A DNA stretch of 52,898 nt from a virus (Duplodnaviria; Caudoviricetes): the IMG/VR virus record IMGVR_UViG_3300020468_000009, positions 1-52,898 of that record; one strand, given 5' to 3'. Each line of letters opens with the position of its first letter. Positions within the stretch are counted from its first letter, which is position 1. Below, in pieces: positions 6,064 to 48,150 of this stretch. The notes beneath the pieces are model-generated. The model searched no databases and was not told where the DNA came from. It saw nothing but the letters and a program-made list of their open reading frames with translations. The position numbers and the translations under genes are program-made.

Positions 6064-6064
6064 A

Positions 6065-9884: not shown

Positions 9885-9892
9885 TGGTTCTC

Positions 9893-10225: not shown

Positions 10226-10243
10226 ATCTTCCTTACTATAGCA

Positions 10244-10274: not shown

Positions 10275-10290
10275 AATCTTCAATATTAAA

Positions 10291-11418: not shown

Positions 11419-11441
11419 TTTAATCTCCTCTTATAAATTGT

Positions 11442-15244: not shown

Positions 15245-16695
15245 TATCGACCAGCACTAAATGCAGCAACAAGTCTTGCTGTTCCTTCTTTTCTAGCTTG
15301 GTCAACTTGATTTGATTCTATTAGTTCTCCATAAGTAGATAGTATGTATTTATTAAGTTCATACTCAAATGCATTACTTACATCATCTGATGACATAGCT
15401 GATTGTATTTCATATTGTTTATCAGGCAAATTGTACTTCTTTCTTCTCAAAGCATCTTCTTGAGCTTGTCTTAATTGATTAGCATTGAGTCTATATGAAT
15501 CACGAGCTTCTTGATTTAGTTCTTTTATTTTATTATTTGCCCAATCTTGTATTGCATATACAGATAAATCACTACTTGGTAATCCAACTGATGTTATTGC
15601 ATTTTCTATTTGTTGATTAAGTAGTCCTGGTTTTGGTATATAAACTATATCTGGTCCTGTAAATATAGGATTTGTATCTGTAAATTTTATACCATCTAAA
15701 CTATCTAAATAAAAATCTCTTACAAATCCTAAGAAAGCTGCATTGTTTCCACCAGATGCTATTGCAATATCTTCTAAATCATTTGTATCTATCCCAAATT
15801 CTGTTTTAGGATTCATGTAATAAAAAGATTGTTGAACAGCAGCTTGTGTTGCTTCATCATATCTTCCTTCAGCAAAACTATTTGCTTCTAAAAATCCTGC
15901 TTGTACTAATGCAAGTTGGAAGTCAATTACTCTCTCCGATGGTAAATTTTCTAAAAATCCAACTTCTAAACCTGCATTATATAGTGGTGTAAGATTTTGA
16001 TTATTTGCTGTATCTCTGTATGTATCTAAAGCAAATGGGTCATTTGATAAACCATAATATCCAATATCACTTCCCTGTGCAAAACCTAATTCATATTCAT
16101 ATGCTCCTGTAAGTAGTTCTTCATTATTTGCAATTTGGTCTATTTCAGCAAAAGCATTCATTAATTTATTTACATTGCCATCTTCTGTATATTGTTTGTA
16201 TGCTGCGTCTCTAAGTTCTTCTGGAGAAGGTTTTTCTTCTTCTTTAACTCTAGCTCTTGATGTTTCTGCAACTCTTTGAGTAATGTTAGAATATGATACT
16301 TGTGCTTCTTCAACACTATCTCCAGCAATTAAACCAGCAGCTTCTCTTTCTGCATCTATTTCATCAGGAGTTCTATCTTCTAATGCACCGTCTGCAACGC
16401 CTTGTTTAAAGTTATTTACACCTTCAGATAATCCTTGACCCATAACATAACCAAAGTATGCTTCACCTGTCATACCAAGCATTTCAGGATTACCAAATTC
16501 TTCAAAGATATCGTCTGCTAATTCATCAGGTAATGAATCAAAAAAGTTAGCAATCTTTTGACCAAGCAAAGAACCTATAAAAGATTCTGGACTTTGTCCT
16601 AAATAAGCAGGGTCAACTGCAGTAAATCCAGATGCTTTAGTCTCTGACCATGCTCTTCCTAATCTGTAAAAAAGACCTTTTTTCTTTTTATTCAT
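15244..16695 (-). CDS. Putative internal virion protein with peptidoglycan-binding-like motif
   Basis: VIDFQLALVQAGFL...EGRYDEATQAAVQQ matches the PG_binding_1 pattern. Confidence 0.55.
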   Translation of the reverse strand: MNKKKKGLFYRLGRAWSETKASGFTAVDPAYLGQSPESFIGSLLGQKIANFFDSLPDELADDIFEEFGNPEMLGMTGEAYFGYVMGQGLSEGVNNFKQGVADGALEDRTPDEIDAEREAAGLIAGDSVEEAQVSYSNITQRVAETSRARVKEEEKPSPEELRDAAYKQYTEDGNVNKLMNAFAEIDQIANNEELLTGAYEYELGFAQGSDIGYYGLSNDPFALDTYRDTANNQNLTPLYNAGLEVGFLENLPSERVIDFQLALVQAGFLEANSFAEGRYDEATQAAVQQSFYYMNPKTEFGIDTNDLEDIAIASGGNNAAFLGFVRDFYLDSLDGIKFTDTNPIFTGPDIVYIPKPGLLNQQIENAITSVGLPSSDLSVYAIQDWANNKIKELNQEARDSYRLNANQLRQAQEDALRRKKYNLPDKQYEIQSAMSSDDVSNAFEYELNKYILSTYGELIESNQVDQARKEGTARLVAAFSAGR

Positions 16696-19600
16696 TAATA
16701 CTCCATTGGTGTAAATACATCAGTAAACTCTTCTTCTACTTCAAACCTAAGTATATCATCATAAACATAGTAGAAATCTGGAAACTGTGAAAATAGTTCT
16801 TGTGCTTTTCTTCTTAACACTTCTCTAAAATATGTATATTCTTGTCTTTTAAGTGTTGCTCTTGGTCCATCTCTTCTTTGTATTTGTGCAAGAACACTAT
16901 CTCTTATTTCTAAATATGATACTAAACCTTGCATTGATGGCAATTCTTTTAATAACATTGTCTCTCCATTAGGAAGATTAACTGTTCTTTCACCTTCATT
17001 TTGTATCATGTTTATAAGTTGCAATCTTTTTGATTCTGCATCAATAGCTTTTGCAGTAGTAGATGTCTGTCCATAGCCAGGATATTCTTGACGTAATGCC
17101 ATTCTATAATCTGTAAGTATTTCATATTTTCTTTCAGGAGTTAGATTTCTATGTGCTCCTGACTCAAATAACAATCTTCTTTGATATTCATAGGCTAATC
17201 TACCTTGTGCTTGTCTTACAGCTGTAACATATTCATCTTCGGATAAATCTACTCTATCTCTATCTGCAAATGAATCAGCCCAAGCAACAAAACTAAATTC
17301 ATCAAGTGGGTTATCTGGAAATAAGTAATATCCAACATCTGGATATATATTTAAAATTTCTTCATTATCTCTACCAAATTTGACACCTTCATCTGTATAA
17401 CTTCTTTTCTTAATCTCTTTTGATTTAGAAACTAATAATGCTGTAGGGTCTAATCCAAACTGATTTACAAATTCTTTTGTAGCAAGAACTTGGTCTCCAC
17501 CATACTTAGAAAGTATTCTATAATACGCATCTGTAAGAATAGACATTCCATAAAAATGATGTTTAGGGTCATCACCTTTTGTTTGTAAAGGGTCTACGAA
17601 TAGTTGTCCACCTGGTGCAACTTCTATATCATATCTTATTACTGCACCTGTAGGAGCAGCAAACTGTATAAATGTTCTTGCTGCAGTTAAAAACATAGCT
17701 GTCTTTTTAGCTTCTTCTAACATTCTTGCTTGTTTAGCTGGTGTAGAATCATCATACAATCCTGTAGTAACAAACATTTTAATTACATCTTTGTATACGT
17801 TAGCAAATCCTCTTTGCATATCAGGGTCTGATGCACCCATAGACATTGCTTTTTTTGCCCATGAAGGTATTAATGCATTTGCATATGTAGCTGGACTTAA
17901 TGCACTCTTTGTTTCTCTTCCATATGGAAAAAATACTTTATCTATTAGTTCTGTTTCAGGTAATATCTTAGACGCTGGTATTCCAACTAATGGTCCAAGA
18001 CCAGGAGCAGGATTACCTACAATCATATTCAAAGATGATACATAACCTTTTAGATTTATTTTTGCATCTGGTGCTGCAAGTTCTTCACCTGTTACAGGAT
18101 TTTTAATTGTTCTTGAATCTCTATTTCCTTCAAACATCCAGTTTGTTAAGAACTCTGAACCAGGAAAGAAAAACATTTCTTCTCCTGTCATTGCATCTGT
18201 GTGAAAGAATCCTTCGTCATCATTATTTAAATCAGCTTTTCTTGCACCATCAATACCTCGTGTTATTTTTCTTGTTGCTAAGAATTTCTTTTGATTCAAT
18301 AATCTTGACCAAGTTCCCATAATCTCTATATATACTTCTGCGAAAGGAAAAGCTAGACGTAACATATCAGATACAACATGTCTTCTATTTAAATCATAAA
18401 GTAATGATTGTGTTTCTGATAATGCGTAGGCTTTTGCTGTTTCATCTAGTGTATCTAAATCTGCAATTCTTAAGAGTTTACCTTCATCAGCTGAAACTTT
18501 TCCTGTTGTATCTAATTGTTTAATAAAACTTTTTGGCAAGTTAGATGCTTGTGCTTGTTGTTTAATTTGTTTTCTAAGTCCATCATCAAAATATGCAATG
18601 TTAGTTTCCATAAATCTCCAATAGAATTGTCTAAATGCAGGAGAACGTGAAAGTCTATTTGTAGGTGCTGACATAACAATACTAAACAATCTTTCTACAG
18701 CAGCATCATAGGAACTTACTCTTTCTCCATCCATATCAAATACAGATTTTTTCATTACGTGTATTGGTTTATAAGGGTCTTTTTTAGCTAACCACTTTGT
18801 ATATGTTTTTTTATTACCAATACTTGCTTTTCTTCCTATAGCTACAGTTTTACCATCAATATCTACAAGTATTGCTTTGTCATCAACAGCATTTATACCT
18901 TTAGATATATGCTCTAATAATTCTGCATCTCCAGTTGTAACAAGTTCAAACTCTATTTCTGATTGTGGAGATTTTCTAATTCTTTTCATTCCTTCCATAT
19001 CTTCAAATACTATACGTGTACCATCTGGTTTAACTTCTGTAACTTTATATGAACCACCTGTTTTGTAATGAACTCTAGCTGCAACCGAATCAATATAATC
19101 ATCAGCCCATTTTCTATCATTTAATATTTTAATTTTTTGATACTTACCTGCTTCATCAGACCCATAAGCTAAAGCTGTTCTCCAACTACTCAAATCTCCA
19201 TCTTCATTCCAAAATCTATCTTTTATATTTTGTAGTCCAGATTTTATATCATCAACTCCACCTTTAAGTGTTGCTATTTCTGCAGCAATAGGGTCATCTA
19301 CTAATTGAAATATTTCTGAGACTGCAGCTCCGTGATATCCTTTATCTCCTTTTTGAACTTCTTTGAATGCAAAAGTTCTTTTAAGTTTATCACCATCTAA
19401 AATTCCACTGTGTGACATAGACATACTTGATTTATGATAAATACTATCTGCTAATATTTCATTGTCTCTAATACCAAACATACCTCTTTGTATGGTTCTA
19501 TCTATATCTAGGTCTTCATATCCTCTTACTCTTCTTAAAACAGATTGTCTATCTTTTCCTAATATCCAAGCAAATGCTGATAGAGGATGTGTAAATACAT

Positions 19601-22600
19601 TATCTAAATCATCTGCCCACATTCTGATTTGTTCTTCACCAACAACTCTTGCAGTCCATGCACCTCTAATAAGTATGAATGGTTTCCAAGCTCTATTCAT
19701 ATAGTTATCTCCTAATTTAGATAACCAACCTTGCACTAATGCATTAGCATCTGCGTCATCTGCTGATAAATCAAATTTTTTCCTAGCTGTTTTTACTGTC
19801 ATTTTTAACCAATCTGTAATACCTTTTTGGTCATTTGTTTGTAATTCAAATAAATCAGCTACTGGTTTTGCTAACATCTCTTCAAATTCAGAAAGTTCAA
19901 ACTCTCGTCCATCTTCTAAATTGACAGTTTTTCTAGTAGAACTTACTCTTGCTCTTTTAGAACTAGGTATAATTCTTGTCCAAAATTCTCTAGCTGGTGA
20001 GAACACTCTTAAAAATAATCTTGCATCTGGCAAAGGTAATGCACCTGATGCTAAATATTCTGATATCAAATGTGCAGTAGGTCTTCCAACAACTGCTTCT
20101 ATTTCATCAAAATTAGCACGTTTCATTAATGTATTTGTTGCTGTTGTAAGAACATCATCTTCAGTGGTTATGTCAGAAAAATAATTAAGTATTTGATTTG
20201 GAGATACCTTTGCATTTTTAAATACTTTAAATCCTGCTTTAGTATCAAATGCATCTTGTGTTTTTGTAAATAAAGTTTTAAGAACAGGACTTATCTTTGA
20301 CGCATCTCCTGTTCTAGGTCCAATAACATTTACTGTAGGATATTTCTTAATAAGCTCTTGTATCTCTTGAACAAATTTATTATCAATTCTTTGTGCAGTA
20401 TCAACAACTACTAATGGTCTGTTACCTTGATATACACCTTGCTCAGGTATTTTAGCTTGTGACCATTTACCTTTTCTTGCGTAGTTAATTGCACCAGTTG
20501 TACCTTTACCAGCTGGATTACTTGCAGAATCAAATATTGCAATAGTTATATCTGCATCATCAATGTTCTTTTGACTTCTTGCAACAAAATATTTATTAGC
20601 TGGCATCTTATCATTAATATTTTCAGAAGTTAATCTATTTCTTTCACGTTGTAATGTTTCTAATTTCTTTACAGCTGTGTCATCATTAATGTCATTAAGC
20701 CTTGCTTTTAACTGTGCTTCATGTTTTGCTAGAGATTGTTTTTCTTTGTTAATTCTTTTTTGTAAATTTTTATATGCTCTTTGATAACCAGGCATATCAA
20801 AACTATCATATTGTAATATTTTGTTTGGACCTTCTTCTATTAAGTTTGTAGCATATCTAAGTATTGATGCTTTAGCTTCTAGCTCTAATCTAGCTGCTAA
20901 AGATAATTCAGGTGCATCTCCATTCTTTATCCTTACATCATCAGCATCTAATGCTTTTCTTGCAATATAACCAGCTTGTAATTTATTTTGTATTTTTAAA
21001 TCATCTCTAACAGGAGAAAGCTCTAATTCTTTGTAAGCTTTTTCTAAACCTTTTATTTTTGATTTATCATTAGAAACTGTTTGTTTCAATCTATTGTATG
21101 TTGTAGTAAGAGCTCCTACTCTTTTATCTTTAAATACTGCTTCTTTTTCAGTCCTTGAAATTGTTTCATCAATAAAACCAACTTGTCTAGCAGTGTCATC
21201 TGTTAATCCATAATCTATTAACTCTGCTTCATGTAGTCCATAACTACCTGCTTTAGTTTGTGCAGAGTCTCCAAAACCAGGAGTTGCTGTACCACCTGTT
21301 TCTATATCAAGTTCTTTTGCAACTCTAAGTGCTTGTATTTCTGTACCTCTACCACCATTTGAAATAACCTTTGCAGGTAATACTTCTGCTTCTGCTATAT
21401 CTGTTGGTACTCTTTGTGCTGAATCAACTTTAGATAAAAAGTCATCTTTAATATCTTGTATGCTTCTTAATCTTCCAGACTTTTTAAAATTAGAGTTACT
21501 TATTATTTCATCAATAATATCTAATGTTTGTTCCATGTTAAAAGAAACATTATCTAAATTATTTCTACCTTTATCTAAGATATCAATTTTTTGTAAGTTC
21601 CAAGCTTCTTCTCCATATGCACCATAAAAATATTTGTTGGCTTCGTCAACACTAGCAACTAATTTACCAATTTGATTAACTACACCTTTTGGTATATTCA
21701 CAGCTTCAAACTTATCCATAATGTGTTTAAGAACTCCGCCTTCACCACCATAAATATCTAACATCATATTTAATTTTTGTAGTGAAGCTGGACTTCCTTC
21801 AAGAGCTTGAATAACTTCATCATCCATAGCATCAACAATTCTATCTAGTGCTCTTGTTGCAACATCATCATCAACTTTTGCAAACTTCATAAAGTTTTTT
21901 AATTCAAAAAAAGTATCATTTAAACTATCTGTTTGTATTCTTGGTGCAGGAAACACATTAAATAATCTTTCGAAGATACTATTTTTACTATTTAATTTCA
22001 TTGCAGTTCTAAAACCTACTGCTGATGTTTTATCTCCATAAACAAATTTAGCTGCTGCTTTTGATAATGAACCATTAAATAGTAATGACGTTGGGTCAAG
22101 TCTTGCCATTGCATCTGTAGTAGGGTCTTGAGCAGCTTCAACAAGAATATTTTTTATTGCTTGTTTATCTTCAGTATCCCTAAGTCTTCTGTAAAGTTTT
22201 GCACCACCAGCACTTCTTGCAATAGTTCTATCTGAAACTCTTTTACCTTGTTTTCCTAAAAGTATTTCTACTTCATCATATGTTTTTGCTTGTGCAAACA
22301 AATCTGCAATATCATCACCAGTTTTAGTTTCAAAATAAAACTCTCTTGCTTTAGGTACTTTTACTGTCTTTCTAACAACATTATCAATTAAGCCACTTGA
22401 TTTTTTTGTTTCTGTAAGGTTAAATGATTTTTTGATTTTTCCTGCTTTTGCTAATGCACCACCAGCATATGTTGCAGGGTCAGTTACTACTGTATAAACT
22501 CCGTCAATAATACCTGACAATAAATTAAAAGATTTCGTTCCTGGTTCAAATACTTCAACAGCTGCAACACGACCAGGAGATAATTTAACAGTACCTTTTC

Positions 22601-23324
22601 TACCTCTATAAGTTCCTGCATTACCTTCTCTAGTATTCATTTCTAATTGTGTAATTGGTTTGCCATAATATTCTTGGATAATTTGTTTTACTTCATCAGG
22701 ATTTGCACCTCTACCAACTAACTCTTTATAAACTTCTGTGTCTTCTGCAACTGTAGAATTACCAAAATAACCTTCACCTAAGTTAACTTTTTTACCTTGA
22801 CGTAATTGTTGAAAGGCTCTAGTAGCTACAGTAGGTCCTTGGTCTTGTAATGATTGTACAAACTCATTTCTACCATTAGGGTCAAGTAATGGTACTAATG
22901 TGCCTACACCTGTAAAAGCAAGTAGTGGATTCATTTTTCTTGCAGCATAATATTTCATACTTGCTGTGCCATATTTTTTTACAAATTGTGATGCAGACTC
23001 CATTCCAACTACTGCACCCCTTACTGCACCTCTTCCTGCAGCTTTAACACCTTCCCACCATGATGTTTCTTTTTCTAAAAATCTTTCTACAATACTTGTA
23101 AATTCTGGTGAGTCTTTTGTAAGTCCCATCAATGCACCTGCAACCTGTACATCTTTTGGTAAGAATCCATAAGTCTTAGATATCTCAGACATGTTATAAG
23201 GTATAGATGGATTGTTTGCGAAAAAGTTATCTATTTGTTCAGCTTGTCCAAGTAATTCATTTTTGTAAATTTCGTCCTGGTCTTCTTGCCAGGGTGCTAC
23301 CCAGTTCCACCTAAAAGCCGTCAT
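16695..23324 (-). CDS. Giant internal virion / DNA-ejection protein (2209 aa) with embedded SLOG-like domain
   Basis: Large helical protein in a podovirus-like module; KVISNGGRGTEIQAL...ETGG and RSQKNIDDADITI...GTTGAINYA...VNVIGPR. Confidence 0.7.
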   Translation of the reverse strand: MTAFRWNWVAPWQEDQDEIYKNELLGQAEQIDNFFANNPSIPYNMSEISKTYGFLPKDVQVAGALMGLTKDSPEFTSIVERFLEKETSWWEGVKAAGRGAVRGAVVGMESASQFVKKYGTASMKYYAARKMNPLLAFTGVGTLVPLLDPNGRNEFVQSLQDQGPTVATRAFQQLRQGKKVNLGEGYFGNSTVAEDTEVYKELVGRGANPDEVKQIIQEYYGKPITQLEMNTREGNAGTYRGRKGTVKLSPGRVAAVEVFEPGTKSFNLLSGIIDGVYTVVTDPATYAGGALAKAGKIKKSFNLTETKKSSGLIDNVVRKTVKVPKAREFYFETKTGDDIADLFAQAKTYDEVEILLGKQGKRVSDRTIARSAGGAKLYRRLRDTEDKQAIKNILVEAAQDPTTDAMARLDPTSLLFNGSLSKAAAKFVYGDKTSAVGFRTAMKLNSKNSIFERLFNVFPAPRIQTDSLNDTFFELKNFMKFAKVDDDVATRALDRIVDAMDDEVIQALEGSPASLQKLNMMLDIYGGEGGVLKHIMDKFEAVNIPKGVVNQIGKLVASVDEANKYFYGAYGEEAWNLQKIDILDKGRNNLDNVSFNMEQTLDIIDEIISNSNFKKSGRLRSIQDIKDDFLSKVDSAQRVPTDIAEAEVLPAKVISNGGRGTEIQALRVAKELDIETGGTATPGFGDSAQTKAGSYGLHEAELIDYGLTDDTARQVGFIDETISRTEKEAVFKDKRVGALTTTYNRLKQTVSNDKSKIKGLEKAYKELELSPVRDDLKIQNKLQAGYIARKALDADDVRIKNGDAPELSLAARLELEAKASILRYATNLIEEGPNKILQYDSFDMPGYQRAYKNLQKRINKEKQSLAKHEAQLKARLNDINDDTAVKKLETLQRERNRLTSENINDKMPANKYFVARSQKNIDDADITIAIFDSASNPAGKGTTGAINYARKGKWSQAKIPEQGVYQGNRPLVVVDTAQRIDNKFVQEIQELIKKYPTVNVIGPRTGDASKISPVLKTLFTKTQDAFDTKAGFKVFKNAKVSPNQILNYFSDITTEDDVLTTATNTLMKRANFDEIEAVVGRPTAHLISEYLASGALPLPDARLFLRVFSPAREFWTRIIPSSKRARVSSTRKTVNLEDGREFELSEFEEMLAKPVADLFELQTNDQKGITDWLKMTVKTARKKFDLSADDADANALVQGWLSKLGDNYMNRAWKPFILIRGAWTARVVGEEQIRMWADDLDNVFTHPLSAFAWILGKDRQSVLRRVRGYEDLDIDRTIQRGMFGIRDNEILADSIYHKSSMSMSHSGILDGDKLKRTFAFKEVQKGDKGYHGAAVSEIFQLVDDPIAAEIATLKGGVDDIKSGLQNIKDRFWNEDGDLSSWRTALAYGSDEAGKYQKIKILNDRKWADDYIDSVAARVHYKTGGSYKVTEVKPDGTRIVFEDMEGMKRIRKSPQSEIEFELVTTGDAELLEHISKGINAVDDKAILVDIDGKTVAIGRKASIGNKKTYTKWLAKKDPYKPIHVMKKSVFDMDGERVSSYDAAVERLFSIVMSAPTNRLSRSPAFRQFYWRFMETNIAYFDDGLRKQIKQQAQASNLPKSFIKQLDTTGKVSADEGKLLRIADLDTLDETAKAYALSETQSLLYDLNRRHVVSDMLRLAFPFAEVYIEIMGTWSRLLNQKKFLATRKITRGIDGARKADLNNDDEGFFHTDAMTGEEMFFFPGSEFLTNWMFEGNRDSRTIKNPVTGEELAAPDAKINLKGYVSSLNMIVGNPAPGLGPLVGIPASKILPETELIDKVFFPYGRETKSALSPATYANALIPSWAKKAMSMGASDPDMQRGFANVYKDVIKMFVTTGLYDDSTPAKQARMLEEAKKTAMFLTAARTFIQFAAPTGAVIRYDIEVAPGGQLFVDPLQTKGDDPKHHFYGMSILTDAYYRILSKYGGDQVLATKEFVNQFGLDPTALLVSKSKEIKKRSYTDEGVKFGRDNEEILNIYPDVGYYLFPDNPLDEFSFVAWADSFADRDRVDLSEDEYVTAVRQAQGRLAYEYQRRLLFESGAHRNLTPERKYEILTDYRMALRQEYPGYGQTSTTAKAIDAESKRLQLINMIQNEGERTVNLPNGETMLLKELPSMQGLVSYLEIRDSVLAQIQRRDGPRATLKRQEYTYFREVLRRKAQELFSQFPDFYYVYDDILRFEVEEEFTDVFTPMEY

Positions 23325-29180: not shown

Positions 29181-29710
29181 GCAATAAGTATCTCATCTAC
29201 AATATGGTAGCTAACTGTAATCTCCTTGACTATGTTCGTAGCTAATAAATCCTTTTTGGGGACTAGCATAGTTCGTGAAAAAAAATTTTTATTTTGGGCT
29301 TCTACAATTTTATATTTATTGTCGTACATCCAGTCTATAATGTAAGGCACTAACTCTTGTGGATTCCAGTAATATAAAGTCGAAGTTGGGTATTCCCAGT
29401 AAAATAAGAAATCTGCAAACGTTTTAAGTGCTGCCCCAATTTTCTTTTCTCCGTTGTCCTGGACAATCATTATCTCTAATGCAAAGTTGTCTGTATTTTT
29501 TATCTGTGTATCTGTTTTGACTTCAACGTATCTTGCACCTAATTCATTATTAATAATAAATAAATCTGCACCTTTCATTTGGTCATCGAATGTTACATCT
29601 CTACAAATAAACTGACGTTTGCCTTCATTGTCTGTTTGTGCTTCATAGTATTTTTTAACTAGGGTTTCCCCTTTTTTTCCTATTGCATTTTGTGTTTCGA
29701 AATCGAACAT
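29177..29710 (-). CDS. PD-(D/E)xK restriction-endonuclease-like nuclease
   Basis: GKKGE helix, GADLFI, YVEVKTD, NFALEI; RBS AGGAGG. Confidence 0.75.
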   Translation of the reverse strand: MFDFETQNAIGKKGETLVKKYYEAQTDNEGKRQFICRDVTFDDQMKGADLFIINNELGARYVEVKTDTQIKNTDNFALEIMIVQDNGEKKIGAALKTFADFLFYWEYPTSTLYYWNPQELVPYIIDWMYDNKYKIVEAQNKNFFSRTMLVPKKDLLATNIVKEITVSYHIVDEILIA

Positions 29711-29789
29711 AATCCTCCTGTAAATAACTTGTTTTATTCTAACATGCTGTTTATACTATCCACAACAAATAGTTTTTTTTAACTATAGA

Positions 29790-30111
29790 GTTACAGGTAA
29801 GAGCTATCGGACGGCAAAAAGCTGACTGCATCTTATGGATGGACTGGGATTACCACAAAGTCAGTACCCAAGGACTCTTGAAAGAAAAAAATTCAAAAAA
29901 TATGCATATATGTCCGCTATGCTCGAAAACACACTACACATTCCTACAGTAAATAATACGTGTTTTAACTATACATACTACAAAAACGTGTTAATATACT
30001 ACATAGGGAGACTGGTGTAGTCCTTGTTTGGTAATACCTGTAAGTAACCTGTAACAATAAACATCACGCAAGTGATGGTTCACAAACATCTTGCTGGTCT
30101 CCCACCTTTTT
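29790..30111 (+). ncRNA. Putative structured non-coding RNA of unknown family
   Basis: Multiple stems with plus-strand G-U wobbles, GCAA tetraloop hairpin at 30062-30077, terminal U-run, upstream TATACT at 29752-29757. Confidence 0.5.
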
Positions 30112-30652
30112 CAAAGTAAAAATTACCAGAAAATCCCGAGAACCTTACGTATATACATACCCCACCCCCTATGTTAAAACATAGGTCTGCCCTGTTAACG
30201 CACGGTGCATACCCCCCATTACTCTATAGTTACTCTGTAATCAAACGTTATGTCAATGAAAAGAAACGTAATACTCTAGGTACATACTGTAGTGTTTTGT
30301 ATAACAAATGGTAGCCCTATGCATTGAACCATACAAAGTACAATAAGCCTAGCTAACAGTACGTTATCCCAAGAAAACATTGTCCCCAAGACTGCATTAC
30401 AAAGCCAAGCACTCGTGCATGTCTTTGCCTATATATGCAGTCATTAACGGGGTACTACTACTAGTTCCCCCTACTGAAGTAGCTTTGCTACTTGGTCGGG
30501 GTGGACATCTAGCACATGTTTCCTATTAGTAAAGTATTTTTTCAAAATACCTAGCAATAAAAAAACGCTCACAAGCGTTTTCAATTATTGTTGACAAATA
30601 GGGACAGGTGCTCTTGTCCCCTTAGTAGTAGCTCAGTAGAAAGGATAAAACA

Positions 30653-31033
30653 ATGAGTAATTACGTAAATAAAGAAAAGAACTATGACCCGATTGGCTCG
30701 ACTGGATTCTTTGGCGTTAAACGCCTTAGTGTCCCGAGTAGAAAAGGACAAAGTTCTTTTTATCTTGTTAAGATGAATGACTTTTGGACTTCCAAAAGTA
30801 ATTCTCTTGGAACTGTTATCAATCAAGAGCCTTTAACAAACTATGATTGCATCATACAGTTTGAAGCTCTTGTGAATAACAAGAAGTTCCAACTTAACAA
30901 GAACGGAACAATGCCTAAAGAACTTGTATCCATGATGGGGACTAACGAACTCGCACGCGAATTCGAAGGAGTCCCATCATTAGACCAAATCAAAGAGATA
31001 AAATCTGGTTGGTCTAAAGGTCGTAAGGCATAG
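30653..31033 (+). CDS. Hypothetical early protein (first gene of the rightward arm)
   Basis: RBS AGAAAGGA; TTGACA at 30591-30596; own terminator. Confidence 0.75.
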   Translation: MSNYVNKEKNYDPIGSTGFFGVKRLSVPSRKGQSSFYLVKMNDFWTSKSNSLGTVINQEPLTNYDCIIQFEALVNNKKFQLNKNGTMPKELVSMMGTNELAREFEGVPSLDQIKEIKSGWSKGRKA

Positions 31034-31043
31034 TTCCTATGTT

Positions 31044-31086
31044 GTATAGCTCGGGGGGTTTATCCCCCCTTGCTATATATTTTTTT
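31044..31086 (+). terminator. Rho-independent terminator
   Basis: TATAGC..GGGGGG ttta TCCCCCC..GCTATA followed by a T-run. Confidence 0.7.
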
Positions 31087-40047: not shown

Positions 40048-42128
40048 ATTTGTTTCCTAAACATAAACGCAGCCATACTTGCTATTCTAGTCAAAATTAC
40101 AGGGACTACCACCTCTTGTGCTTTTTCTTTCTGGTCAGATGTCATATCATTTCCTATAGTTGCAATACTTATATCTTCAAAATCTATATCTACAAAAGTT
40201 TCTATTGGATTCTCTAAGAATGTTTCAAACTGTACCTCTGTTACTACGTCAGCAAGTGTGTAGTTTTCTACATCTGCATTCTCTACAGCTCTTTCAACGT
40301 ATTCTTCTACAGCTTCTGCTACAACTTCATCCTCTTGTATTGCTTCTGCAATGATTTCAACGTCTTCAGTCTGTACCTGTAGTACCTCAGCAACAACCTC
40401 AACTTGTTCTTCAGTAAGTATTTCAATATCATCAATAGCCTCCTCCACTACAGCCTGTATGACCACCTGTGTTTCCTCGGTGGCTTGAGATAGATTTTGT
40501 ACACCTATATCATTTACCTCTTCAAGAACTTCTACAACTTCTTCGGTGTCGAGTTCTTGCACAAAAGTTTCAATAACTTCTTCGATTTGTTCATCTGATA
40601 AATCTTCTTCCTCTATATCAGGTATCTCTATTATTTCTTCTAGTTCTTCAATCTCTTCTTCAACCATCTCTTCAGTAAGTACCTCTTCAATCTCCTCGGC
40701 AATATCTTCCACCTGTAGAACTTCAGGTTCTTCATTGTCATCTCTTCGTATATCCTTTTCGAGTAACTCATCTTTATCTTCTTTTATTTTCTCTTGAACT
40801 TCTTCTAAATCATTTTGTATATCTTCTTCAGAAGGTGGGAACAAATCTGTTTCTATATAAAATTCTACCATATCTATCTCTATTTCTTCTATATCCTCTA
40901 TAATTACAAACTCAAACTCTTCTAAATCTTCTAAATACTCTTCTACTTCTATGATTGTGTCTATGTATTCATCCATTTGTTCTTCAGATTCAAACTCCAA
41001 TATCTCAATCTCTTCTTCATATTCAAGTTTCTTAACATCTCTTTCCATTTGTCTGTCAAGCTCTTCAATCTCTTCATCTGTAAGTTCAACTTCCACATAC
41101 TCAGGTATATCAACATCATCAAAAAACTCTTCTCCGATTTCTGATTCCATAATTTGTAACTCATCTTGTTCATAATCTCTTTCAAGTTGTTCATCAGTTA
41201 ACTCAACTCCATACATTTCTAGGTTATTTTGTCTCTGTTGGTCTCTTTCTAATGTACCATCATCTATTTCTCTTTGTGAATATTCTACAATTTCACCACT
41301 ATCTAGCTCTATAGGTATATCTTTTATTTCTTCAGGTGGAATTATAAATATAGGTTCAGGCTCAGGTTCGGGTTCGGGTGGTGGCGGTAATGTAGTTGTG
41401 GTTGTTGTTGGTTGTATGTACTTAAATGATATGTCATCAAGTAGTGACCAGTCATTTATTGTTATTGTAAAGCTATCTATAAATGTATCTAAAGTGTCGT
41501 AAATGTTATAAACTACATCTTCAAACATAGTCTGTATGTTGCTGTTGCTTTGCCCTTCTAAAACATTCTCTTGTGTAGTTTCATCTGTATGTGTGTATGT
41601 AACTGTGCCATCATTATTTAATGCACCGATTCTAAAACCTACTTCATATATATCTATGTCTAATACTTCATCATCAACTGTTGTTGTATCAGGTAAGGTA
41701 AATATATAATCATTACTACTATCGCCATGTCTTTGATAATGTAAATTCATATGATAGTCAGTCATTCCACAGCACTGCCAATTACCATTACTGTGTTGGT
41801 CATCTATTTGTATATTGTTATCTACTTCATTACCTTGACTATCTAATTCATCTTCAGGTAAAACTATATCTGTAGTTTGTTCGTATGTATCAGGCACAGT
41901 TGTAGTAGTAGTTGTTGTAGTTGTGTCTGTGTTATTAGGAATAGTTGTGGTCGTAGTTGTTTCATCAGGACCATCAAATGTCTCTATCTCTTCTACTTCT
42001 CCAGGTATAGTCGTAGTAGTAGTTGTCGTTGTTGTAGTTGTATTATCTTCTTCATTAGCTAACGCTGAGAGCGGTAACATAACAAGAGATACTACTAACC
42101 ACCATTGCAGCAGCCGTGTCCGCAGCAT
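40044..42128 (-). CDS. Large acidic secreted / membrane-anchored protein
   Basis: Signal peptide (..LSALA), poly-Thr and PPPPEPEPEP linkers, long Glu/Asp-rich region, C-terminal VVVPVILTRIASMAAFMFRK. Confidence 0.8.
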   Translation of the reverse strand: MLRTRLLQWWLVVSLVMLPLSALANEEDNTTTTTTTTTTTIPGEVEEIETFDGPDETTTTTTIPNNTDTTTTTTTTTVPDTYEQTTDIVLPEDELDSQGNEVDNNIQIDDQHSNGNWQCCGMTDYHMNLHYQRHGDSSNDYIFTLPDTTTVDDEVLDIDIYEVGFRIGALNNDGTVTYTHTDETTQENVLEGQSNSNIQTMFEDVVYNIYDTLDTFIDSFTITINDWSLLDDISFKYIQPTTTTTTLPPPPEPEPEPEPIFIIPPEEIKDIPIELDSGEIVEYSQREIDDGTLERDQQRQNNLEMYGVELTDEQLERDYEQDELQIMESEIGEEFFDDVDIPEYVEVELTDEEIEELDRQMERDVKKLEYEEEIEILEFESEEQMDEYIDTIIEVEEYLEDLEEFEFVIIEDIEEIEIDMVEFYIETDLFPPSEEDIQNDLEEVQEKIKEDKDELLEKDIRRDDNEEPEVLQVEDIAEEIEEVLTEEMVEEEIEELEEIIEIPDIEEEDLSDEQIEEVIETFVQELDTEEVVEVLEEVNDIGVQNLSQATEETQVVIQAVVEEAIDDIEILTEEQVEVVAEVLQVQTEDVEIIAEAIQEDEVVAEAVEEYVERAVENADVENYTLADVVTEVQFETFLENPIETFVDIDFEDISIATIGNDMTSDQKEKAQEVVVPVILTRIASMAAFMFRKQI

Positions 42129-42141
42129 TCCATATTACCTC

Positions 42142-42327
42142 CTACATTAGTGCGTTGACCAACACCACCAATGCAGAGCCTGCAACCAACCAACCACTTA
42201 ATTCTTGTCGTGATATTTTTGAGTTTACTTTTTCGTGAAGTAAATCAATTCTTTCGTTTGTTTTTTCTTGTGTTTCAATAATTATATTGAGCAACTCTTT
42301 ATTTGTATAACCATTACCATTACTCAT
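42142..42327 (-). CDS. Small coiled-coil + TM protein (allele of 959..1144)
   Basis: Near-identical protein, divergent DNA. Confidence 0.7.
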   Translation of the reverse strand: MSNGNGYTNKELLNIIIETQEKTNERIDLLHEKVNSKISRQELSGWLVAGSALVVLVNALM

Positions 42328-42449
42328 TTTATCCAATCCCAATCTTCTTCTGTATAATTATCAGGTACATTTGGTGATACGAGGTCATCTAACCAAACAT
42401 AAAAGTTTTTTAAAAAGTATCCAAATATAAATCCGATTAAATAATCCAT
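42324..42449 (-). CDS. 41-aa membrane peptide (allele of 1141..1266)
   Basis: MDYLIGFIFGYFLKNFYVWLDDLVSPNVPDNYTEEDWDWIK. Confidence 0.75.
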   Translation of the reverse strand: MDYLIGFIFGYFLKNFYVWLDDLVSPNVPDNYTEEDWDWIK

Positions 42450-42456
42450 CAAAAGA

Positions 42457-43146
42457 TTATAGCATACGCTTTGGTCGTTTCCTTTTTATACCTTCAAATA
42501 TCGTACGAATATTTCTATGAAAATTTATACTAGCAGTTGAGTAAGACATATATTTTAGAATATCTTCTGTTGGTTCTATTTCTTTTAAGTCTATAGGTTT
42601 ATTAAAAAATATTGTGTTACATGGATTACCTTTTACTAAATTAATTGTTGCAGGTTTATTTATATCGTCCTGTACCCATGCAAGATTAATTGGTCTTAAC
42701 CAAGCATAAGGATAGAAAGAACCTATAACAGCAGAACAATTAGTTTTGTCTACATTGTCTAATGGGTTCATTAAAGACATTTCTAAATCTTTATCATCAG
42801 TTACAAATATCATACTTATTGTTTGTTGCAGTACAGCTCTTCCATCATCAGTAGCTCTAACAGATAACATATCACCCATCAATGTGTGCATATCATCAGA
42901 TGTACTATGAACTTTTTCATCTAACATATAGTTGTAATATGGTCCTTCTTTATTTATACCAAATTCTATTTGTACACTTAATATTCCAGGCAAAGTAAAA
43001 AGTCTATTATTTAATCCACCAATAGATGGACAACCATAAACATTGTTATTTATTTTCTTTAACTCTTGTTGTAATGAGGGATGCATAAAATCGTTAGGTA
43101 TATAAAAATATCCTGCTTTAGTTTTTTTTAATTTAGGATACACCAT
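42457..43146 (-). CDS. DUF6065-like paralog 4 (second copy)
   Basis: Same as 1274..1963 except DS to EG near the C-terminus. Confidence 0.6.
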   Translation of the reverse strand: MVYPKLKKTKAGYFYIPNDFMHPSLQQELKKINNNVYGCPSIGGLNNRLFTLPGILSVQIEFGINKEGPYYNYMLDEKVHSTSDDMHTLMGDMLSVRATDDGRAVLQQTISMIFVTDDKDLEMSLMNPLDNVDKTNCSAVIGSFYPYAWLRPINLAWVQDDINKPATINLVKGNPCNTIFFNKPIDLKEIEPTEDILKYMSYSTASINFHRNIRTIFEGIKRKRPKRML

Positions 43147-43865
43147 TACTTAAATCTTTTCTTAGACCAACTTGTATCACGATAATGATTTTGCATAGTA
43201 GCATTAAAACCATTTTCAGCTAAAACATCTAGCTCACCATCTTGTAGATACTCTGTCTCCATAGACCAGGACTCTCTTTGAAATGGTATTATCTGTGCTA
43301 AAGGTGTCCCTTTAGTTATAATGCCTGTAAAATCTTCTTTTAACCACATAGGAAAATGAAAGTTTAATACTTCTTTATCTGTATCTACTATGGCAGGTAT
43401 CATTCTAAGAGGTGTATCATGCCAACCAAAAGGTTGTGTAATTAAACAACTGTAACCTTTAGGTGTTTTAATTATTGTATTCCAAATGTAATTAACAACT
43501 TGACTATTGTATCCAGTAGGTGGTTCTATTATATTTGTACTTGTGTTGTGTATTGTAAATAACAGCTCATCACTATTCCACTGCAAATCAAATACATTGT
43601 CTTTGTTGTGTTGAACAATCATATCTTTACGTAGCTCTACAATATAACCTGCTTTCATAGTATCAATGAAAGGTAAACACTTTTTAAATGTCATGTTCTT
43701 TCCTTCATCTGTCATCATAAGTTTTTTATCAGGTGTTCCATCACTCATATAAACAGGTGACATAGAATACCAAGATGGCTTATAGAGATAAGCAGGTTTA
43801 GGTGCAGGTTGTATTTTAGAATATCGTTTATTTATAGCTACAAATTTAATCTTTTTGTTTAGCAT
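43146..43865 (-). CDS. DUF6065-like paralog 3 (second copy)
   Basis: Identical translation to 1963..2682. Confidence 0.7.
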   Translation of the reverse strand: MLNKKIKFVAINKRYSKIQPAPKPAYLYKPSWYSMSPVYMSDGTPDKKLMMTDEGKNMTFKKCLPFIDTMKAGYIVELRKDMIVQHNKDNVFDLQWNSDELLFTIHNTSTNIIEPPTGYNSQVVNYIWNTIIKTPKGYSCLITQPFGWHDTPLRMIPAIVDTDKEVLNFHFPMWLKEDFTGIITKGTPLAQIIPFQRESWSMETEYLQDGELDVLAENGFNATMQNHYRDTSWSKKRFK

Positions 43866-44568
43866 TACGCTTCCTAAACAGTTTCCTATATCCATTTTTA
43901 AATGAACCAAGATTATTTACATAGCCTCTGGCGGAAAGTTCTTCATCCCATTCTTGTAAAACTAAATTATACTCTTCTCTTTTATAAGGAACTATATAAC
44001 ATAATGGTGTGCCTTGTGCAATAAATACATCTTTTACACCATTCTTTAACATAATTTGTGGATTAATTAAATGATATTGGTCAGTGTGTATTATTCCATA
44101 AGCCACTTCCCAATCAGGATTGTTGTGCCATAACATTGGTATCTGCATTATTGAGTATCCATCAGGAGTAATACACTCCCAAGTGTTATCTAATTTAAAA
44201 ACAAAATCAAAATTAGAATCTCCATAATCAAGAAATTGGTCACGACTATGTATTACTATTTCTATTCCAGGTATTCCTGTTTCAAATCTCCAGTCACCAT
44301 TATCTTTGTTATACATTAATTGTAAATCACATGGTGCAGGTATTACATATCCAGTATTAAAAACATCTACAAAAGATGGGCATAACTTTGCTGTTCTTGT
44401 TTCACTGTTAGGACCAGTATGTTTGTAAGGGTCTAATGGATTATGTTCTATATCTGCAGCAGCAGGTGTATTTTTCCATATCTCAGGTATAAAATTTTTA
44501 GCAGGTTGTACAGTTACTTCTGAATTAAGTAATCCTTTTATAGGTGTTTGAAACTTTACATCTATCAT
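43846..44568 (-). CDS. DUF6065-like paralog 2 (second copy)
   Basis: Identical translation to 2663..3385. Confidence 0.7.
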   Translation of the reverse strand: MIDVKFQTPIKGLLNSEVTVQPAKNFIPEIWKNTPAAADIEHNPLDPYKHTGPNSETRTAKLCPSFVDVFNTGYVIPAPCDLQLMYNKDNGDWRFETGIPGIEIVIHSRDQFLDYGDSNFDFVFKLDNTWECITPDGYSIMQIPMLWHNNPDWEVAYGIIHTDQYHLINPQIMLKNGVKDVFIAQGTPLCYIVPYKREEYNLVLQEWDEELSARGYVNNLGSFKNGYRKLFRKRNAKQKD

Positions 44569-45257
44569 TTGTTAAATCTTCTATAACCATTTTTAAATTT
44601 AGATAATGCTCTATGCATACTGCCTTCTATCTGTGGTTTATACTTATCATAGTTATTATCTATGACTAATTCATAATCTTCTCTTTTAAATGGAACATAA
44701 TAACATAAAGGTTCACCTGCTTTAATAAGTATTTCTTTCTTGTTACTTGTATAGCAAATTTGTAAATTAACTTCATTTACTACATCTGCTTTTAGAACAC
44801 CATAAGCTACATGCCAATCAGGATTGTATTCATAAAACAGTGGTAATTGTCTTACACTATAACCTTTAGGAACAATTATTCTGTAAGGATAATTTAATTT
44901 AAATATTTGTTTTATTACAGGGTTAGGTAAAAAATTATTAAGCTGTCCTTGTCCATGCATTGATATATCAAAGGCTTCATTAGATGTTTTCCAAGCCCAA
45001 TCATTTACACCATCACCATCAACACTTAACCATATATCACAAGGTGCAGGTAAAACAAACCCTTCTGTAAATATATCTAAGAAGTTAGGACATAACTTTG
45101 CTGTTCTAAAGTTAGGTATTTCTGTGTAATTTGTTTCATACTCTACATCTGAAGGCATATTTTTATACCATTCAGGGATATAATTTTTTGCAGGTTGTGG
45201 TTGAAATTCTTTTATGTCTCTGTGTCCAATCACATCAGAAGTAAATATTATTTTCAT
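44565..45257 (-). CDS. DUF6065-like paralog 1 (second copy)
   Basis: Identical translation to 3382..4074. Confidence 0.7.
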   Translation of the reverse strand: MKIIFTSDVIGHRDIKEFQPQPAKNYIPEWYKNMPSDVEYETNYTEIPNFRTAKLCPNFLDIFTEGFVLPAPCDIWLSVDGDGVNDWAWKTSNEAFDISMHGQGQLNNFLPNPVIKQIFKLNYPYRIIVPKGYSVRQLPLFYEYNPDWHVAYGVLKADVVNEVNLQICYTSNKKEILIKAGEPLCYYVPFKREDYELVIDNNYDKYKPQIEGSMHRALSKFKNGYRRFNK

Positions 45258-45273
45258 TCTCCACCTATGTTAG

Positions 45274-45771
45274 CTAATCGCCTAAATCTTGTCCTTGTAA
45301 TGCATCTTCATCAGCTTGTGTCCATTGAACAAATTCCCAACCTGTTGTATTGTCTGCTTGATATGCTGTTTCATTCCATCTATGTAGCCATATTTCATCA
45401 GCAGGTTTACTTGTAATATAATCAGGTTGTGCTGCTGCATCATTTGGGTCTATGTCTGCTAATGGATGAGGTAATGGAGCTACATATTCGTTCTTTGTAT
45501 CATCCCAAGTCCAACTATCAAATGGTTTTGGTTCTTGAAATTTATCAAGAGAGCTATCATAAGTTCCACCAATGTGTGCAAAGTTACCTCTTATATTGCT
45601 GTTATAAGATGTTTGAACCCATGTGCCTTCTAGTTTTAAAACATTAGCTATATAGTCTAAACCAAGTTGTTCTGTATCTGTACCTGTAGATTCAGGGTCT
45701 GTAATATCATTTGAAATAACAATAACTTGTTCTACTGTATTGTCATCTGCTATTTTTGCAAAGTGTGCCAT
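45274..45771 (-). CDS. Tail-fibre-associated protein (second copy)
   Basis: Identical translation to 4091..4588. Confidence 0.65.
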   Translation of the reverse strand: MAHFAKIADDNTVEQVIVISNDITDPESTGTDTEQLGLDYIANVLKLEGTWVQTSYNSNIRGNFAHIGGTYDSSLDKFQEPKPFDSWTWDDTKNEYVAPLPHPLADIDPNDAAAQPDYITSKPADEIWLHRWNETAYQADNTTGWEFVQWTQADEDALQGQDLGD

Positions 45772-46667
45772 TAGAAAGTAATACTTCCTGTCCCATTAAA
45801 TTGATATATATTATTGCTACCACTTGTTGATGTTATTGGAGAACCAGTAGTTGCTGCTGCTGTAGCTGTAGTGCTTAGGATAATTGTTCCTGAACCTCCG
45901 CCACCACCGTTAAAAGTTTGTCCATGGTTTCCGTGACCTCCGCCACCTCCGCCACCGCCAAGGTTTCCAGAGCCGCCTCCACCGCCGCCGCCTTTACCGC
46001 CGCCGCCGCCTCCACCAGAGCCACCGCCACCGCCGTGTTGTTCTCCTCCTGCATAGATACGATAGTAAGCACCGCCACCACCGCCTCCAGCACGAGTTAC
46101 AGCAGAACCAGTAATTGATGATGAAGCACCTGAGCCACCTGCTCCTCTGTTTTGACCAGAAGCATTGCCACCTGTTGCCCCTGCTCCACCACCACCAGAG
46201 TTACCTCCGCTATTTCCTTCAGCAGGAGAGTAACCTCCAGAGTTTCCTGCTTTGCTTGTGCCACCGCCTGAACCTCCTGTAGCATTAGAACCGCCACCAC
46301 CTGTAGCGTTAATTAAAATATTTCCTGAAGTTGTTTCTGCAATTCGTGAAAACCCACCATTAGCACCAGTTGTTCCGTGACCTGCACCTGAACCACCACT
46401 GCCACCTGCACCAATTGTCATTGTGTATTCAACACCTTGTATAAAACCTACTGTCCCTGTTCGGTATCCACCTCCACCACCGCCACTAGCAGTAGAGCCT
46501 CCTCCTCCACCACCGCCACCTAAGACAAGAAAATCAACTGAAACTTTACCACCCCAGTTGTTATCTTCTGTTAGGTTAGTGATGTCATCTAATCCGAACA
46601 CACCTTGAAGTGCAGCAGTATCATCTGCTACATTTCCTATAAATCCATATTTTTTTCTTTCTACCAT
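45771..46667 (-). CDS. Glycine-rich tail fibre protein (second copy)
   Basis: Identical translation to 4588..5484. Confidence 0.75.
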   Translation of the reverse strand: MVERKKYGFIGNVADDTAALQGVFGLDDITNLTEDNNWGGKVSVDFLVLGGGGGGGGSTASGGGGGGYRTGTVGFIQGVEYTMTIGAGGSGGSGAGHGTTGANGGFSRIAETTSGNILINATGGGGSNATGGSGGGTSKAGNSGGYSPAEGNSGGNSGGGGAGATGGNASGQNRGAGGSGASSSITGSAVTRAGGGGGGAYYRIYAGGEQHGGGGGSGGGGGGGKGGGGGGGSGNLGGGGGGGGHGNHGQTFNGGGGGSGTIILSTTATAAATTGSPITSTSGSNNIYQFNGTGSITF

Positions 46668-46686
46668 TTAAAAAAAAACTCCTTGT

Positions 46687-47013
46687 TTAGACGTCTATTT
46701 CAAGAACGCTGAGTGTCATTTCTAAATCTGATGCTGCACCTGCCCAGGACCTAAGTTCATCAGCAGCTTCTAGTACTAGCTTTCCTCCAATAGGATTTAT
46801 TGCAGTCTTTGCTGGTACTGATAATGCTGAAACTAGAGCTGAGACAACTGAACCATCATTCATGTCAACGTTTAAATCTGCAGCATTTGTACCGTCTACG
46901 TTAGCAACTTGACAATGAATAACCACTGCGATTTTGCTAGCTGGACAGGTATAAACTACTGCATCTGCACTATTACCTAGTGCTGTGTTAACTGTTTGAA
47001 ACGCTTCTGCCAT
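46687..47013 (-). CDS. Small virion structural protein (second copy)
   Basis: Identical translation to 5504..5830. Confidence 0.6.
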   Translation of the reverse strand: MAEAFQTVNTALGNSADAVVYTCPASKIAVVIHCQVANVDGTNAADLNVDMNDGSVVSALVSALSVPAKTAINPIGGKLVLEAADELRSWAGAASDLEMTLSVLEIDV

Positions 47014-47039
47014 AATTTATCTCCAATATAATTAATTAA

Positions 47040-47246
47040 TTAACTATCTCCCAATACTATAGCACGACTTTGTGTCGCAGTCACGCTTGTTACCGAAAGA
47101 CTTTCGTAAGTTAATCTGAGGGCTAGGGATATACCTGCTCCTCCTGCTTCATTTAAAGTTAAATCTAAATCTTCATCTAACTTTGTATTTCCTTTAGCCT
47201 CTAAGACTAAATCGCCACCTTCTTTAAGCATCATGAGCATACTCAT
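47040..47246 (-). CDS. Hypothetical protein (second copy)
   Basis: Identical translation to 5857..6063. Confidence 0.6.
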   Translation of the reverse strand: MSMLMMLKEGGDLVLEAKGNTKLDEDLDLTLNEAGGAGISLALRLTYESLSVTSVTATQSRAIVLGDS

Positions 47247-47247
47247 A

Positions 47248-48150
47248 TTATCCTCCTAACGCCAAGACCATACCTAATGTTGTACCTGCACCTGGGTACA
47301 ATGTAATCTCACCTTGTCCACCCATTCCTGAGTGTCCACCTGTAGAGCAGTAGTAATATAATTTAGAAGTTGCTCCTGCTATACCTAAAGTTTCAGGTGT
47401 AATTTCTATTTGATGATAAGCATTAGCACTTCCAGGACTACCACTTGATGTTACATTAGTTGTAAACTCTGAACCTCCACCATGAGTACCATCTCTTGTT
47501 ACAGAAAATTTAAAGTTATGTCCTGATAAAGATGAGTCTGCTAAATCAAATTTGTATTTAAAACCTAATTGAAGTATAAAATTAGCTGACCTTGTACCTG
47601 CACCTGAATCAGTACCTGATAAAAAGTAAAATACATTTTGACTACCTGAGCCATCATCTGCTACTTTTACTGTAATAACAATTGTCTGTGATGCAGTACC
47701 TGCGGTGATACCATCTATCTGTGCTTGAATATTAGAACTTGCATTATCTAGATATTGAAACTCTGTATTACTTATGCTTCCATCACCAATAATTGTTGCA
47801 GCTATTGCTGAAGGACCAGCATCAATTCTGTCGTGAATATCTTCAAACATTTCTTTTACAACTGCCATACGAACTACAGTTCCATCTGCATGTGTAGGGT
47901 CAGAAGTATGTCTAGTTTCTACATCTCTAGTAATTGCAGATAAAGTTGTACCTGATGCACCAGTTACTAATATAACTTCTCTGTTTGATGCACTGTCAGG
48001 GTCTAATACTAAATAATATGGTGCTGCTATGTTTGATGTTCCATTTGATGTAGGTGCAGCAGTCAAAGTTGCTGATGAGCTACCTGATGCTAATACACCA
48101 TTTAATGTTGTTTCAAAAAAGTTTGCAAATTTTACTTCTTGTGCAGTCAC
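47248..48150 (-). CDS. Tail fibre/appendage protein (second copy)
   Basis: Identical translation to 6065..6967. Confidence 0.6.
   Translation of the reverse strand: MTAQEVKFANFFETTLNGVLASGSSSATLTAAPTSNGTSNIAAPYYLVLDPDSASNREVILVTGASGTTLSAITRDVETRHTSDPTHADGTVVRMAVVKEMFEDIHDRIDAGPSAIAATIIGDGSISNTEFQYLDNASSNIQAQIDGITAGTASQTIVITVKVADDGSGSQNVFYFLSGTDSGAGTRSANFILQLGFKYKFDLADSSLSGHNFKFSVTRDGTHGGGSEFTTNVTSSGSPGSANAYHQIEITPETLGIAGATSKLYYYCSTGGHSGMGGQGEITLYPGAGTTLGMVLALGG

Follow-up and report, generated by a model that had tools for sequence, protein, structure and literature searches.

Between the two divergent gene arms of this phage genome lies what appears to be a previously undescribed, conserved structured RNA that matches no curated RNA family. 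We are almost certain that it is a genuine and functional structured RNA, and its best-supported part, judging from the aligned relatives, is a pseudoknotted three-way-junction domain that we call the head (Table 1). Conservation, structure, strand, promoter motif, and modularity can all be read from comparisons of related sequences. The sequence-only reading from which we started had proposed an unclassified structured RNA on the + strand at 29790-30111, and this central claim held up, as the RNA covaries and an Infernal-type scan of the Rfam models found no match to it.

The window, that is, the whole stretch of 52,898 nucleotides that was analysed, is one entire IMG/VR virus record. Positions 1-11582 and 41356-52757 are one 11.4-kb stretch that occurs twice (96.6% identity, 51 gaps), so the genome should measure ~41.2 kb, the assembly having run past its own start, and the two end copies apparently stem from two strains. 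Leftward genes start at 29710 and include small ORFs, the large terminase, a 584-aa ORF, a 2209-aa ORF, and an SU10-type capsid protein, and rightward genes start at 30653 with a 126-aa ORF, an AAA ATPase, and an exonuclease. The 2209-aa ORF (16695-23324, - strand), which sits beside putative portal and terminase genes, matched no PHROG family and had only one subthreshold match in Pfam. The first rightward ORF belongs to one family across lineages (25 to 45% identity); it matched no Pfam or PHROG family, and its AlphaFold model (pLDDT of 75) found nothing in the PDB with Foldseek at E values up to 0.001. Both gene orientation and GC skew switch at the RNA region, and in all lineages the RNA is the first element of the rightward (early) arm, in the same orientation as the genes downstream. 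Across the 942 nt between the arms (29711-30652) all six frames are closed by many stops of all three kinds, which rules out recoded or hidden coding there. A fixed genome end beside the RNA was also rejected, as the distances from the head to the contig end are unclustered in 48 whole contigs.

Every segment listed by the sequence-only reading lies where it had been placed, and the minimum free energy (MFE) structure of the + strand holds nearly all of its nested helices, with the long stem absent. The RNAfold MFE of 29790-30111 on this strand is -76.2 kcal/mol, compared to a shuffle mean of -63.3 (SD, 4.9; z of -2.65), with 1 of 100 shuffles folding as well, and the reverse strand has a z of -1.30. 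The folding energy thus agrees with the earlier proposal, although a single-sequence z of this size is modest alone, suggestive of structure and not proof of it; that the structure goes beyond chance is argued from the covariation across relatives. With the Rfam 15 covariance models the whole window gave no hits at the gathering threshold, and the region 29600-30750, at E values up to 10, gave only seven weak and unrelated ones (10.9 to 18.5 bits, with thresholds of at least 45). Scanning 16 diverse members of the RNA family gave one unrelated weak hit, and none of the known families considered (GOLLD, ROOL, phi29 pRNA, 6S, known riboswitches, and ribozymes) reached its gathering score.

The evidence for the head comes from two alignments. 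The first (A4) is a MAFFT alignment of 50 distinct sequences, with pairs counted according to a model suggested by RNAalifold and inspection; 90.2% of its cells are paired, versus 34 to 42% with the 3' partners slid, and its covariation score is 0.382 versus 0.093 in shuffles (0 of 500 as high). A covariance model built from A4 matched all 100 sources supplied, which had been prechosen by sequence pattern. The second (A5) is fitted to this model, and therefore biased toward it, and contains 72 distinct sequences, with 92.0% of cells paired (34 to 41% in the slid controls) and double changes in 19 of 25 pairs, so that the covariation on which the earlier proposal depended is present. Within A4, changes on both sides occur in six of the seven columns of P1 (the seventh, outermost pair is unformed in the window), in 5/7 of P2, and in all five of P3; P2a goes from U-A to A-U in four sequences and the pseudoknot PKa from A-U to G-C in 3 of 50, and a divergent subtype reads CGGG with CCCG throughout in PKa. 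P1b (GGT with ACC) covaries in A5, with G-C in 59 sequences and A-U in 13, and the support for P1c consists of U-G to C-G only, GCT/GGC becoming GCC/GGC in the divergent subtype. As the partner of the hairpin-loop segment CGGAC is a tail past the variable linker, this pairing is a pseudoknot relative to P1. The strand can also be assigned, since two near-invariant G-U pairs of A5 (UG in 63/72 sequences, GU in 72/72) would be A-C on the other strand, and the RNA is therefore read from the + strand.

Table 1. Features of the RNA and its surroundings (window coordinates unless a locus is named)
Feature	Position	Strand	Details
Sigma-70-like promoter	29729..29757	+	-35 TTGTTT 29729-34, 17-nt spacer, -10 TATACT 29752-57
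Head	29787..29916	+	Pseudoknotted three-way-junction domain, ~130 nt; from comparative alignments
P1	29787-92 with 29873-78	+	
Internal loop between P1 and P1b		+	ACA vs CAAG
P1b	29796-98 with 29866-68	+	
P1c	29803-05 with 29813-15	+	
P2	29821-27 with 29859-65	+	
P3	29829-33 with 29837-41	+	
P2a	29845-47 with 29853-55	+	3 bp
Pseudoknot PKa	29808-12 with 29912-16	+	P1c loop CGGAC with GTCCG
Linker, P1 to pseudoknot tail	29880..29911	+	A/U-rich; length and sequence vary among lineages (A4)
61-aa ORF, not a gene	29835..30020	+	ATG to ATA in L002 and L003; internal 1-nt indel
Poorly conserved middle	29917..30005	+	Holds the TAATACGT/ACGTGTTA and ACTACAC segments; ends in conserved TTAATATACTACA
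Long interrupted hairpin	30006..30103	+	Basal stem GGGAGACTGGTG 30006-17 with TGCTGGTCTCCC 30092-103
Apical part of long hairpin	30030-34; 30036-43 and 30047-54; 30062-77	+	GGTAA; two copies of ACCTGTAA; GNRA hairpin
U-run, terminator-like	30107..30111	+	TTTTT, 3' of the long hairpin
Block A	30123..30160	+	TTACCA, exactly 17 nt, then TACGTATATAC (TACGTA...)
Block B	30288..30351	+	Conserved stretch with TTGAACCATACA; from alignment
Second head	L073:4399-5551	-	Also in L047, L049, L053, L056, L058, L068, L070, L072, L074-L079, L084

Several helices proposed from the single sequence can be recognised in this fold. The CTGACT/AGTCAG helix corresponds to P2 and covaries, as does the inner hairpin (P3), and so does the CGGAC/GTCCG pairing (29808-12/29912-16). 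The longer GAGC..CGGAC/GTCCG..GCTC helix (29801-12/29912-24) that had been drawn around the latter is retained only in this covarying half, as GAGC/GCTC pairs in 46.5 to 75% of cells. A TGGG/CCCA pseudoknot crossing P2 was abandoned, since four sequences change from TGG..CCA to AGG..CCT with CCCA unchanged, which favours a local 3-bp hairpin.

The unpaired columns of the head are more conserved than the paired ones, with 88% versus 56% identity between L147 and the window, and 80 to 91% versus 52 to 68% in the most distant lineages of the subtype nearest to the window. For comparison, terminase identity goes down to 52% and that of the first ORF to 25 to 45%, so the junction nucleotides of the head are more conserved than the phage's own terminase; more than 40 nucleotides of the head are nearly invariant. 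As in RNAs of the riboswitch kind, the head is an aptamer-like domain whose stems covary and whose junction nucleotides are conserved. A more distant relative, L178 (G001:C36, 10591-10747), has the head of the divergent subtype without the GGGATTACC hairpin, and its terminase gene starts right next to the RNA, without intervening small genes.

The region between the head and the long hairpin is less conserved, and two helices proposed for it were lost in the comparison: ACTACAC (29933-39) with GTGTAGT (30015-21) pairs in only 42.7% of cells, and pairs of TAATACGT/ACGTGTTA are already lost in L003, which is 88% identical. The closing helix between GTTACAGGT (29790-98) and ACCTGTAAC (30047-55) is a more complex case. 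It is paired in 89.8% of cells and is almost wholly invariant, with covariation in one of nine pairs, in two sequences. Its sequence is thus conserved, but the helix competes with the covarying P1 and P1b, with which it shares nucleotides. Drawn as a nested helix it also crosses the long stem, and for both to be present at once it would have to be a pseudoknot between loop and 5' end. A fold constrained to contain P1 and P1b is 8.5 kcal/mol less stable in the nested energy model, which has no term for the pseudoknot. A pair of mutually exclusive folds, as had been suggested, does exist, although it sets the closing helix against P1/P1b and does not involve the 29933/30015 helix. This last helix was the sole candidate for a conserved antiterminator and is not conserved, so none was found.

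The long stem 30006-17/30092-103 had been taken for an alternative pairing; it does covary, but it is the conserved fold and not the alternative one. MAFFT misaligns the 3' hairpin across lineages, and it was therefore tested by duplex folding, in which flanks of the same sequence reached a mean of -27.3 kcal/mol versus -15.4 for flanks from different sequences (48 sequences). The stem is kept in all 48 sequences examined, as interrupted stems of 16 to 27 bp; in the window the basal stem has 12 bp, four of them G-U pairs, and is followed by ACC and five U. The GNRA hairpin, which had been read as CATCAC-GCAA-GTGATG (30062-77), covaries as well and was found in 32/48 sequences, where its stem comes in four versions and its loop is GCAA or GCGA. 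The U-run reported after the long stem is there in the window, and a run of at least five within 12 nt of the hairpin occurs in 30/48 sequences, but it is missing in the other 18, among them the near relatives L003, L005, and L012, the L080 group, and the L087 group. The hairpin domain is altogether absent from the L147-type lineage and the divergent subtype, in which only a small hairpin separates the head from Block A. With the U-run absent in 18 sequences and the hairpin in two lineages, termination at this site cannot be the universal mechanism. The long hairpin was not listed by the automated terminator scan, whose loop limit was 3 to 8 nt.

Downstream of the RNA, every lineage has 610 to 1040 nt without a real ORF before the first ORF, and in the window ~540 nt separate the hairpin from it. 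A simple scan, with a script blind to long hairpins, detected few canonical terminators, and in most representatives none of the short kind ahead of the first ORF. Conservation continues in this leader. Block A was found in 17/17 aligned representatives and in the lineages that lack the long hairpin, and it accompanies the second head described below at 13 of its 15 loci; it was rejected as a sigma-70 promoter, as by eye its downstream hexamer is without the conserved last T in most lineages. Block B may be further RNA structure. Further on, a hairpin at 30562-30581 with A-run and T-run flanks is terminator-like on both strands, more strongly on the - strand, and its stem shows a compensatory change in two near relatives.

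The head is a replaceable module. Among further loci, 55 of 57 gave no match to the head model, and several of these keep an 826- to 1153-nt gap at the same place. At 15 distinct loci we found the same promoter position and a 3' hairpin of the same kind, most like the one in the L080 group, with a different 5' module of ~200 nt. This second head has covariation of its own (double changes in 10 of 30 predicted pairs, 12 sequences) and no match in Rfam, with one weak snoRNA hit, and it is unrelated to the first head, occupying the same slot in sister phages. The first ORFs of second-head genomes are 50 to 55% identical to those of the L080 group, which carries the first head, so heads have been swapped among genomes that are otherwise related. 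This amounts to a natural swap experiment on the role of the module.

The RNA seems to have its own promoter. A TATACT -10 box at 29752-57 had been pointed out before, and it proved to be part of a sigma-70-like layout kept in relatives (TTG.., ~17 nt, then TATAGT or TATACT at a fixed distance) that we found in 22/22 representatives. The pattern TTGNNN-N16-18-TANNNT recurs at this distance in 59 of 74 distinct upstream regions; of the other 15, most show near variants. Transcription would start near 29764. The automated promoter scan of the window did not list this promoter, and a repeated phage-specific promoter was discarded, as the motifs TTAATATACTACATAGGGAG and ACAAATAGTTTTTT are single copy or at chance level. 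The ribosome-binding site and start codon of the leftward gene adjoin the promoter of the RNA (29711-29790), so the promoter of the left arm must lie elsewhere, to the right. None was identified; if it does lie there, left-arm transcripts would run antisense across the RNA gene.

The expression data consist of assembled contigs and provide no measure of expression. One RNA-library run, which may contain DNA, has contigs over 29594-29811 and 29936-30277 at a depth of ~3, and deeper ones over the left-arm genes; positions 29812-29935 are bridged by contigs of no run. Two RNA runs of another study cover only 30775-31056, with word depths of 139 and 27.6, a stretch that corresponds to a 283-nt contig inside the first rightward ORF. 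The RNA-library contigs neither show nor exclude transcription of the RNA.

Relatives of the RNA were found in a widespread family of uncultured marine phages. A blastn search with 29700-30700 against 50,697 deposited phage records gave no match, and the nearest cultured terminases are those of Streptomyces phages, with 24% identity. With two flanking proteins as queries only near-identical contigs were recovered, and a terminase search gave 116 related loci, of which 80 were kept (69 to 97% protein identity). By intergenic blastn, 40 of 84 loci matched (64 to 93% DNA identity), the window's own copy being among the 40, with homology mostly over 29765-30180 and extending to ~30340 in some lineages. 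The exact core motif occurs in 66 viral contigs, and a looser 5' pattern occurs in 94 viral stretches, a number that includes about ten chance matches without the rest of the RNA. The 5' motif also turned up in 93 metagenome stretches, whose contig names often follow the style of Tara Oceans. In the GTDB species genomes, the core motif is present in one contig of one metagenome-assembled genome (MAG), of ~1.1 Mb and labelled Actinomycetota, where matches to the head model are confined to two phage-like contigs. The first is a copy of an IMG/VR contig that exceeds genome length, and the second keeps the same gene order and encodes a terminase with 52% identity to that of the window. A MAG contig also carries a 2016-aa counterpart of the 2209-aa ORF. 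As the head model gave no matches in 150 relatives of the MAG, a host-encoded homologue can be dismissed for the genomes searched, and the MAG itself is a weak hint of the host. No description of this RNA turned up in the literature searched, passages of PMC7771536 included, which is not proof of its being unpublished.

Complex conserved folds of this size have mostly proved to be riboswitches, ribozymes, or ribonucleoprotein scaffolds. We tentatively favour a cis-acting element of the early leader as the role of the head: it holds a fixed position after the promoter, no universal terminator follows it, the leader beyond is conserved, and its 5' strand has competing pairings. A host-type RNA polymerase would transcribe the RNA rightward from the promoter at 29729-57, and the head would act in cis on its own transcript, either by sensing a ligand or by acting on the elongating polymerase. 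It would thereby determine how much transcription or processing gets beyond the long hairpin, through the conserved 0.5-kb leader, and on to the first early gene at 30653. A switch could consist of the 5' strand GTTACAGGT forming P1/P1b or, alternatively, pairing with the ACCTGTAA copies in the apical loop of the hairpin. Transcription ends, switching, ligand, and any effect on the early genes are what we infer from the arrangement. The ~540 nt from hairpin to ORF, long for a riboswitch, speak against this reading, as do the U-runs and hairpins missing in some lineages, the lack of a conserved antiterminator, the near absence of covariation in the closing helix, and a first ORF family that offered no hint of function. 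A stand-alone, trans-acting stable RNA, freed by termination or cleavage at the long hairpin and aiding takeover of the host, comes second and nearly as likely, although taken by itself it is not what we would expect. Its partner could be the host RNA polymerase, the ribosome, or a tRNA-handling enzyme, or the RNA could assemble into a larger particle. An own promoter, a terminator-like end in 30/48 sequences, and interrupted stems of 16 to 27 bp, long enough for a double-strand-specific RNase, would all suit such a molecule. Unpaired nucleotides as extremely conserved as these would fit a macromolecular partner that is itself conserved, just as the interchangeable heads would fit self-contained modules, and GTTACAGGT could equally pair with the two ACCTGTAA copies between molecules. 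However, the L147-type and divergent lineages have no terminator or long hairpin after the head, and conservation runs on through Blocks A and B.

The remaining explanations fit less well. That the RNA is self-cleaving or otherwise catalytic and processes the early transcript seems improbable to us: the compact pseudoknotted fold and its many nearly invariant nucleotides are typical of ribozymes and aptamers alike, but no Rfam ribozyme matched even at E values up to 10, no catalytic-core motif is recognisable, and the data mark no cleavage site. Lower still we would place a mainly DNA-level element, such as a replication origin or operator cluster between the arms, with the repeated TTACAGG/CCTGTAA and TTAC motifs as protein-binding sites and any RNA as a priming transcript. 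The position at the switch of gene orientation and GC skew, the single TTACAGG with two inverted copies ~250 bp away, and the 17-bp spacing fixed in Block A would agree with it, but compensatory pair changes and G-U pairs possible on one strand only are signatures of RNA, the window shows no enrichment of ATTACCAS (8 occurrences versus 4.2 expected), and the other motifs are single copy. As to a chance structure in a spacer, or a small protein gene at 29835..30020, the z of only -2.65 and the existence of the 61-aa ORF could have been quoted for them, and protein conservation of this ORF would have spoken against the RNA from the beginning. The ORF had no Pfam or PHROG hit, its region has indels that are not multiples of three across lineages, and in relatives its start is lost and its frame broken, with six frames closed between the arms; together with the covariation and conservation seen in over 70 distinct sequences, this leaves virtually no room for either explanation, and from the alignments we consider both refuted.

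Known RNA systems offer partial parallels, although we do not assign the RNA to any of them. ZTP riboswitches are a class whose aptamer has a variable linker and a pseudoknot. Like these aptamers, the RNA described here has a compact 5' domain just past the promoter, covarying stems with conserved junctions, a pseudoknot with a tail past a linker of variable length, and, in most lineages, a downstream hairpin with a U-run. It has no sequence or model similarity to the Rfam riboswitches and, unlike ZTP-type ones, shows no conserved antiterminator, lies ~540 nt from the first gene, and precedes a gene without metabolic identity. The put RNAs of phage HK022 are cis-acting processive antiterminators of ~70 nt with two stem-loops that modify RNA polymerase. 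Here too a structured RNA comes right after an early promoter and before a terminator-like hairpin on the early-gene transcript, but by inspection the head differs in being a 130-nt three-way junction with a pseudoknot. GOLLD and ROOL are large, ornate RNAs often found on phages or prophages, and our RNA resembles them as a phage-borne, complex, multidomain noncoding RNA with conserved noncoding blocks over ~600 nt; it differs in that no model hit was obtained at E values up to 10, the window has no tRNA genes, and the host environment is another. Early transcripts of T7-type phages contain intrinsic terminators and RNase III processing hairpins, which the long interrupted stem of 16 to 27 bp and the U-run in 30/48 sequences recall. 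The structured apical insert of ~75 nt is, however, far larger than the loop of a normal terminator, and the U-run is not universal.

In all, the RNA marks the start of the early arm in a phage family without a cultured member, and its 93 metagenome stretches and its conservation indicate that it is abundant and strongly selected. Rather speculatively, the two interchangeable heads might be two sensor classes that gate the early programme of a globally distributed marine phage family, either as aptamers that recognise a metabolite or signal of the host or as modules that bind the polymerase. If this were true, these phages would possess a regulatory RNA of their own whose input domains can be exchanged while the output platform, formed by the long hairpin and Block A, is shared.
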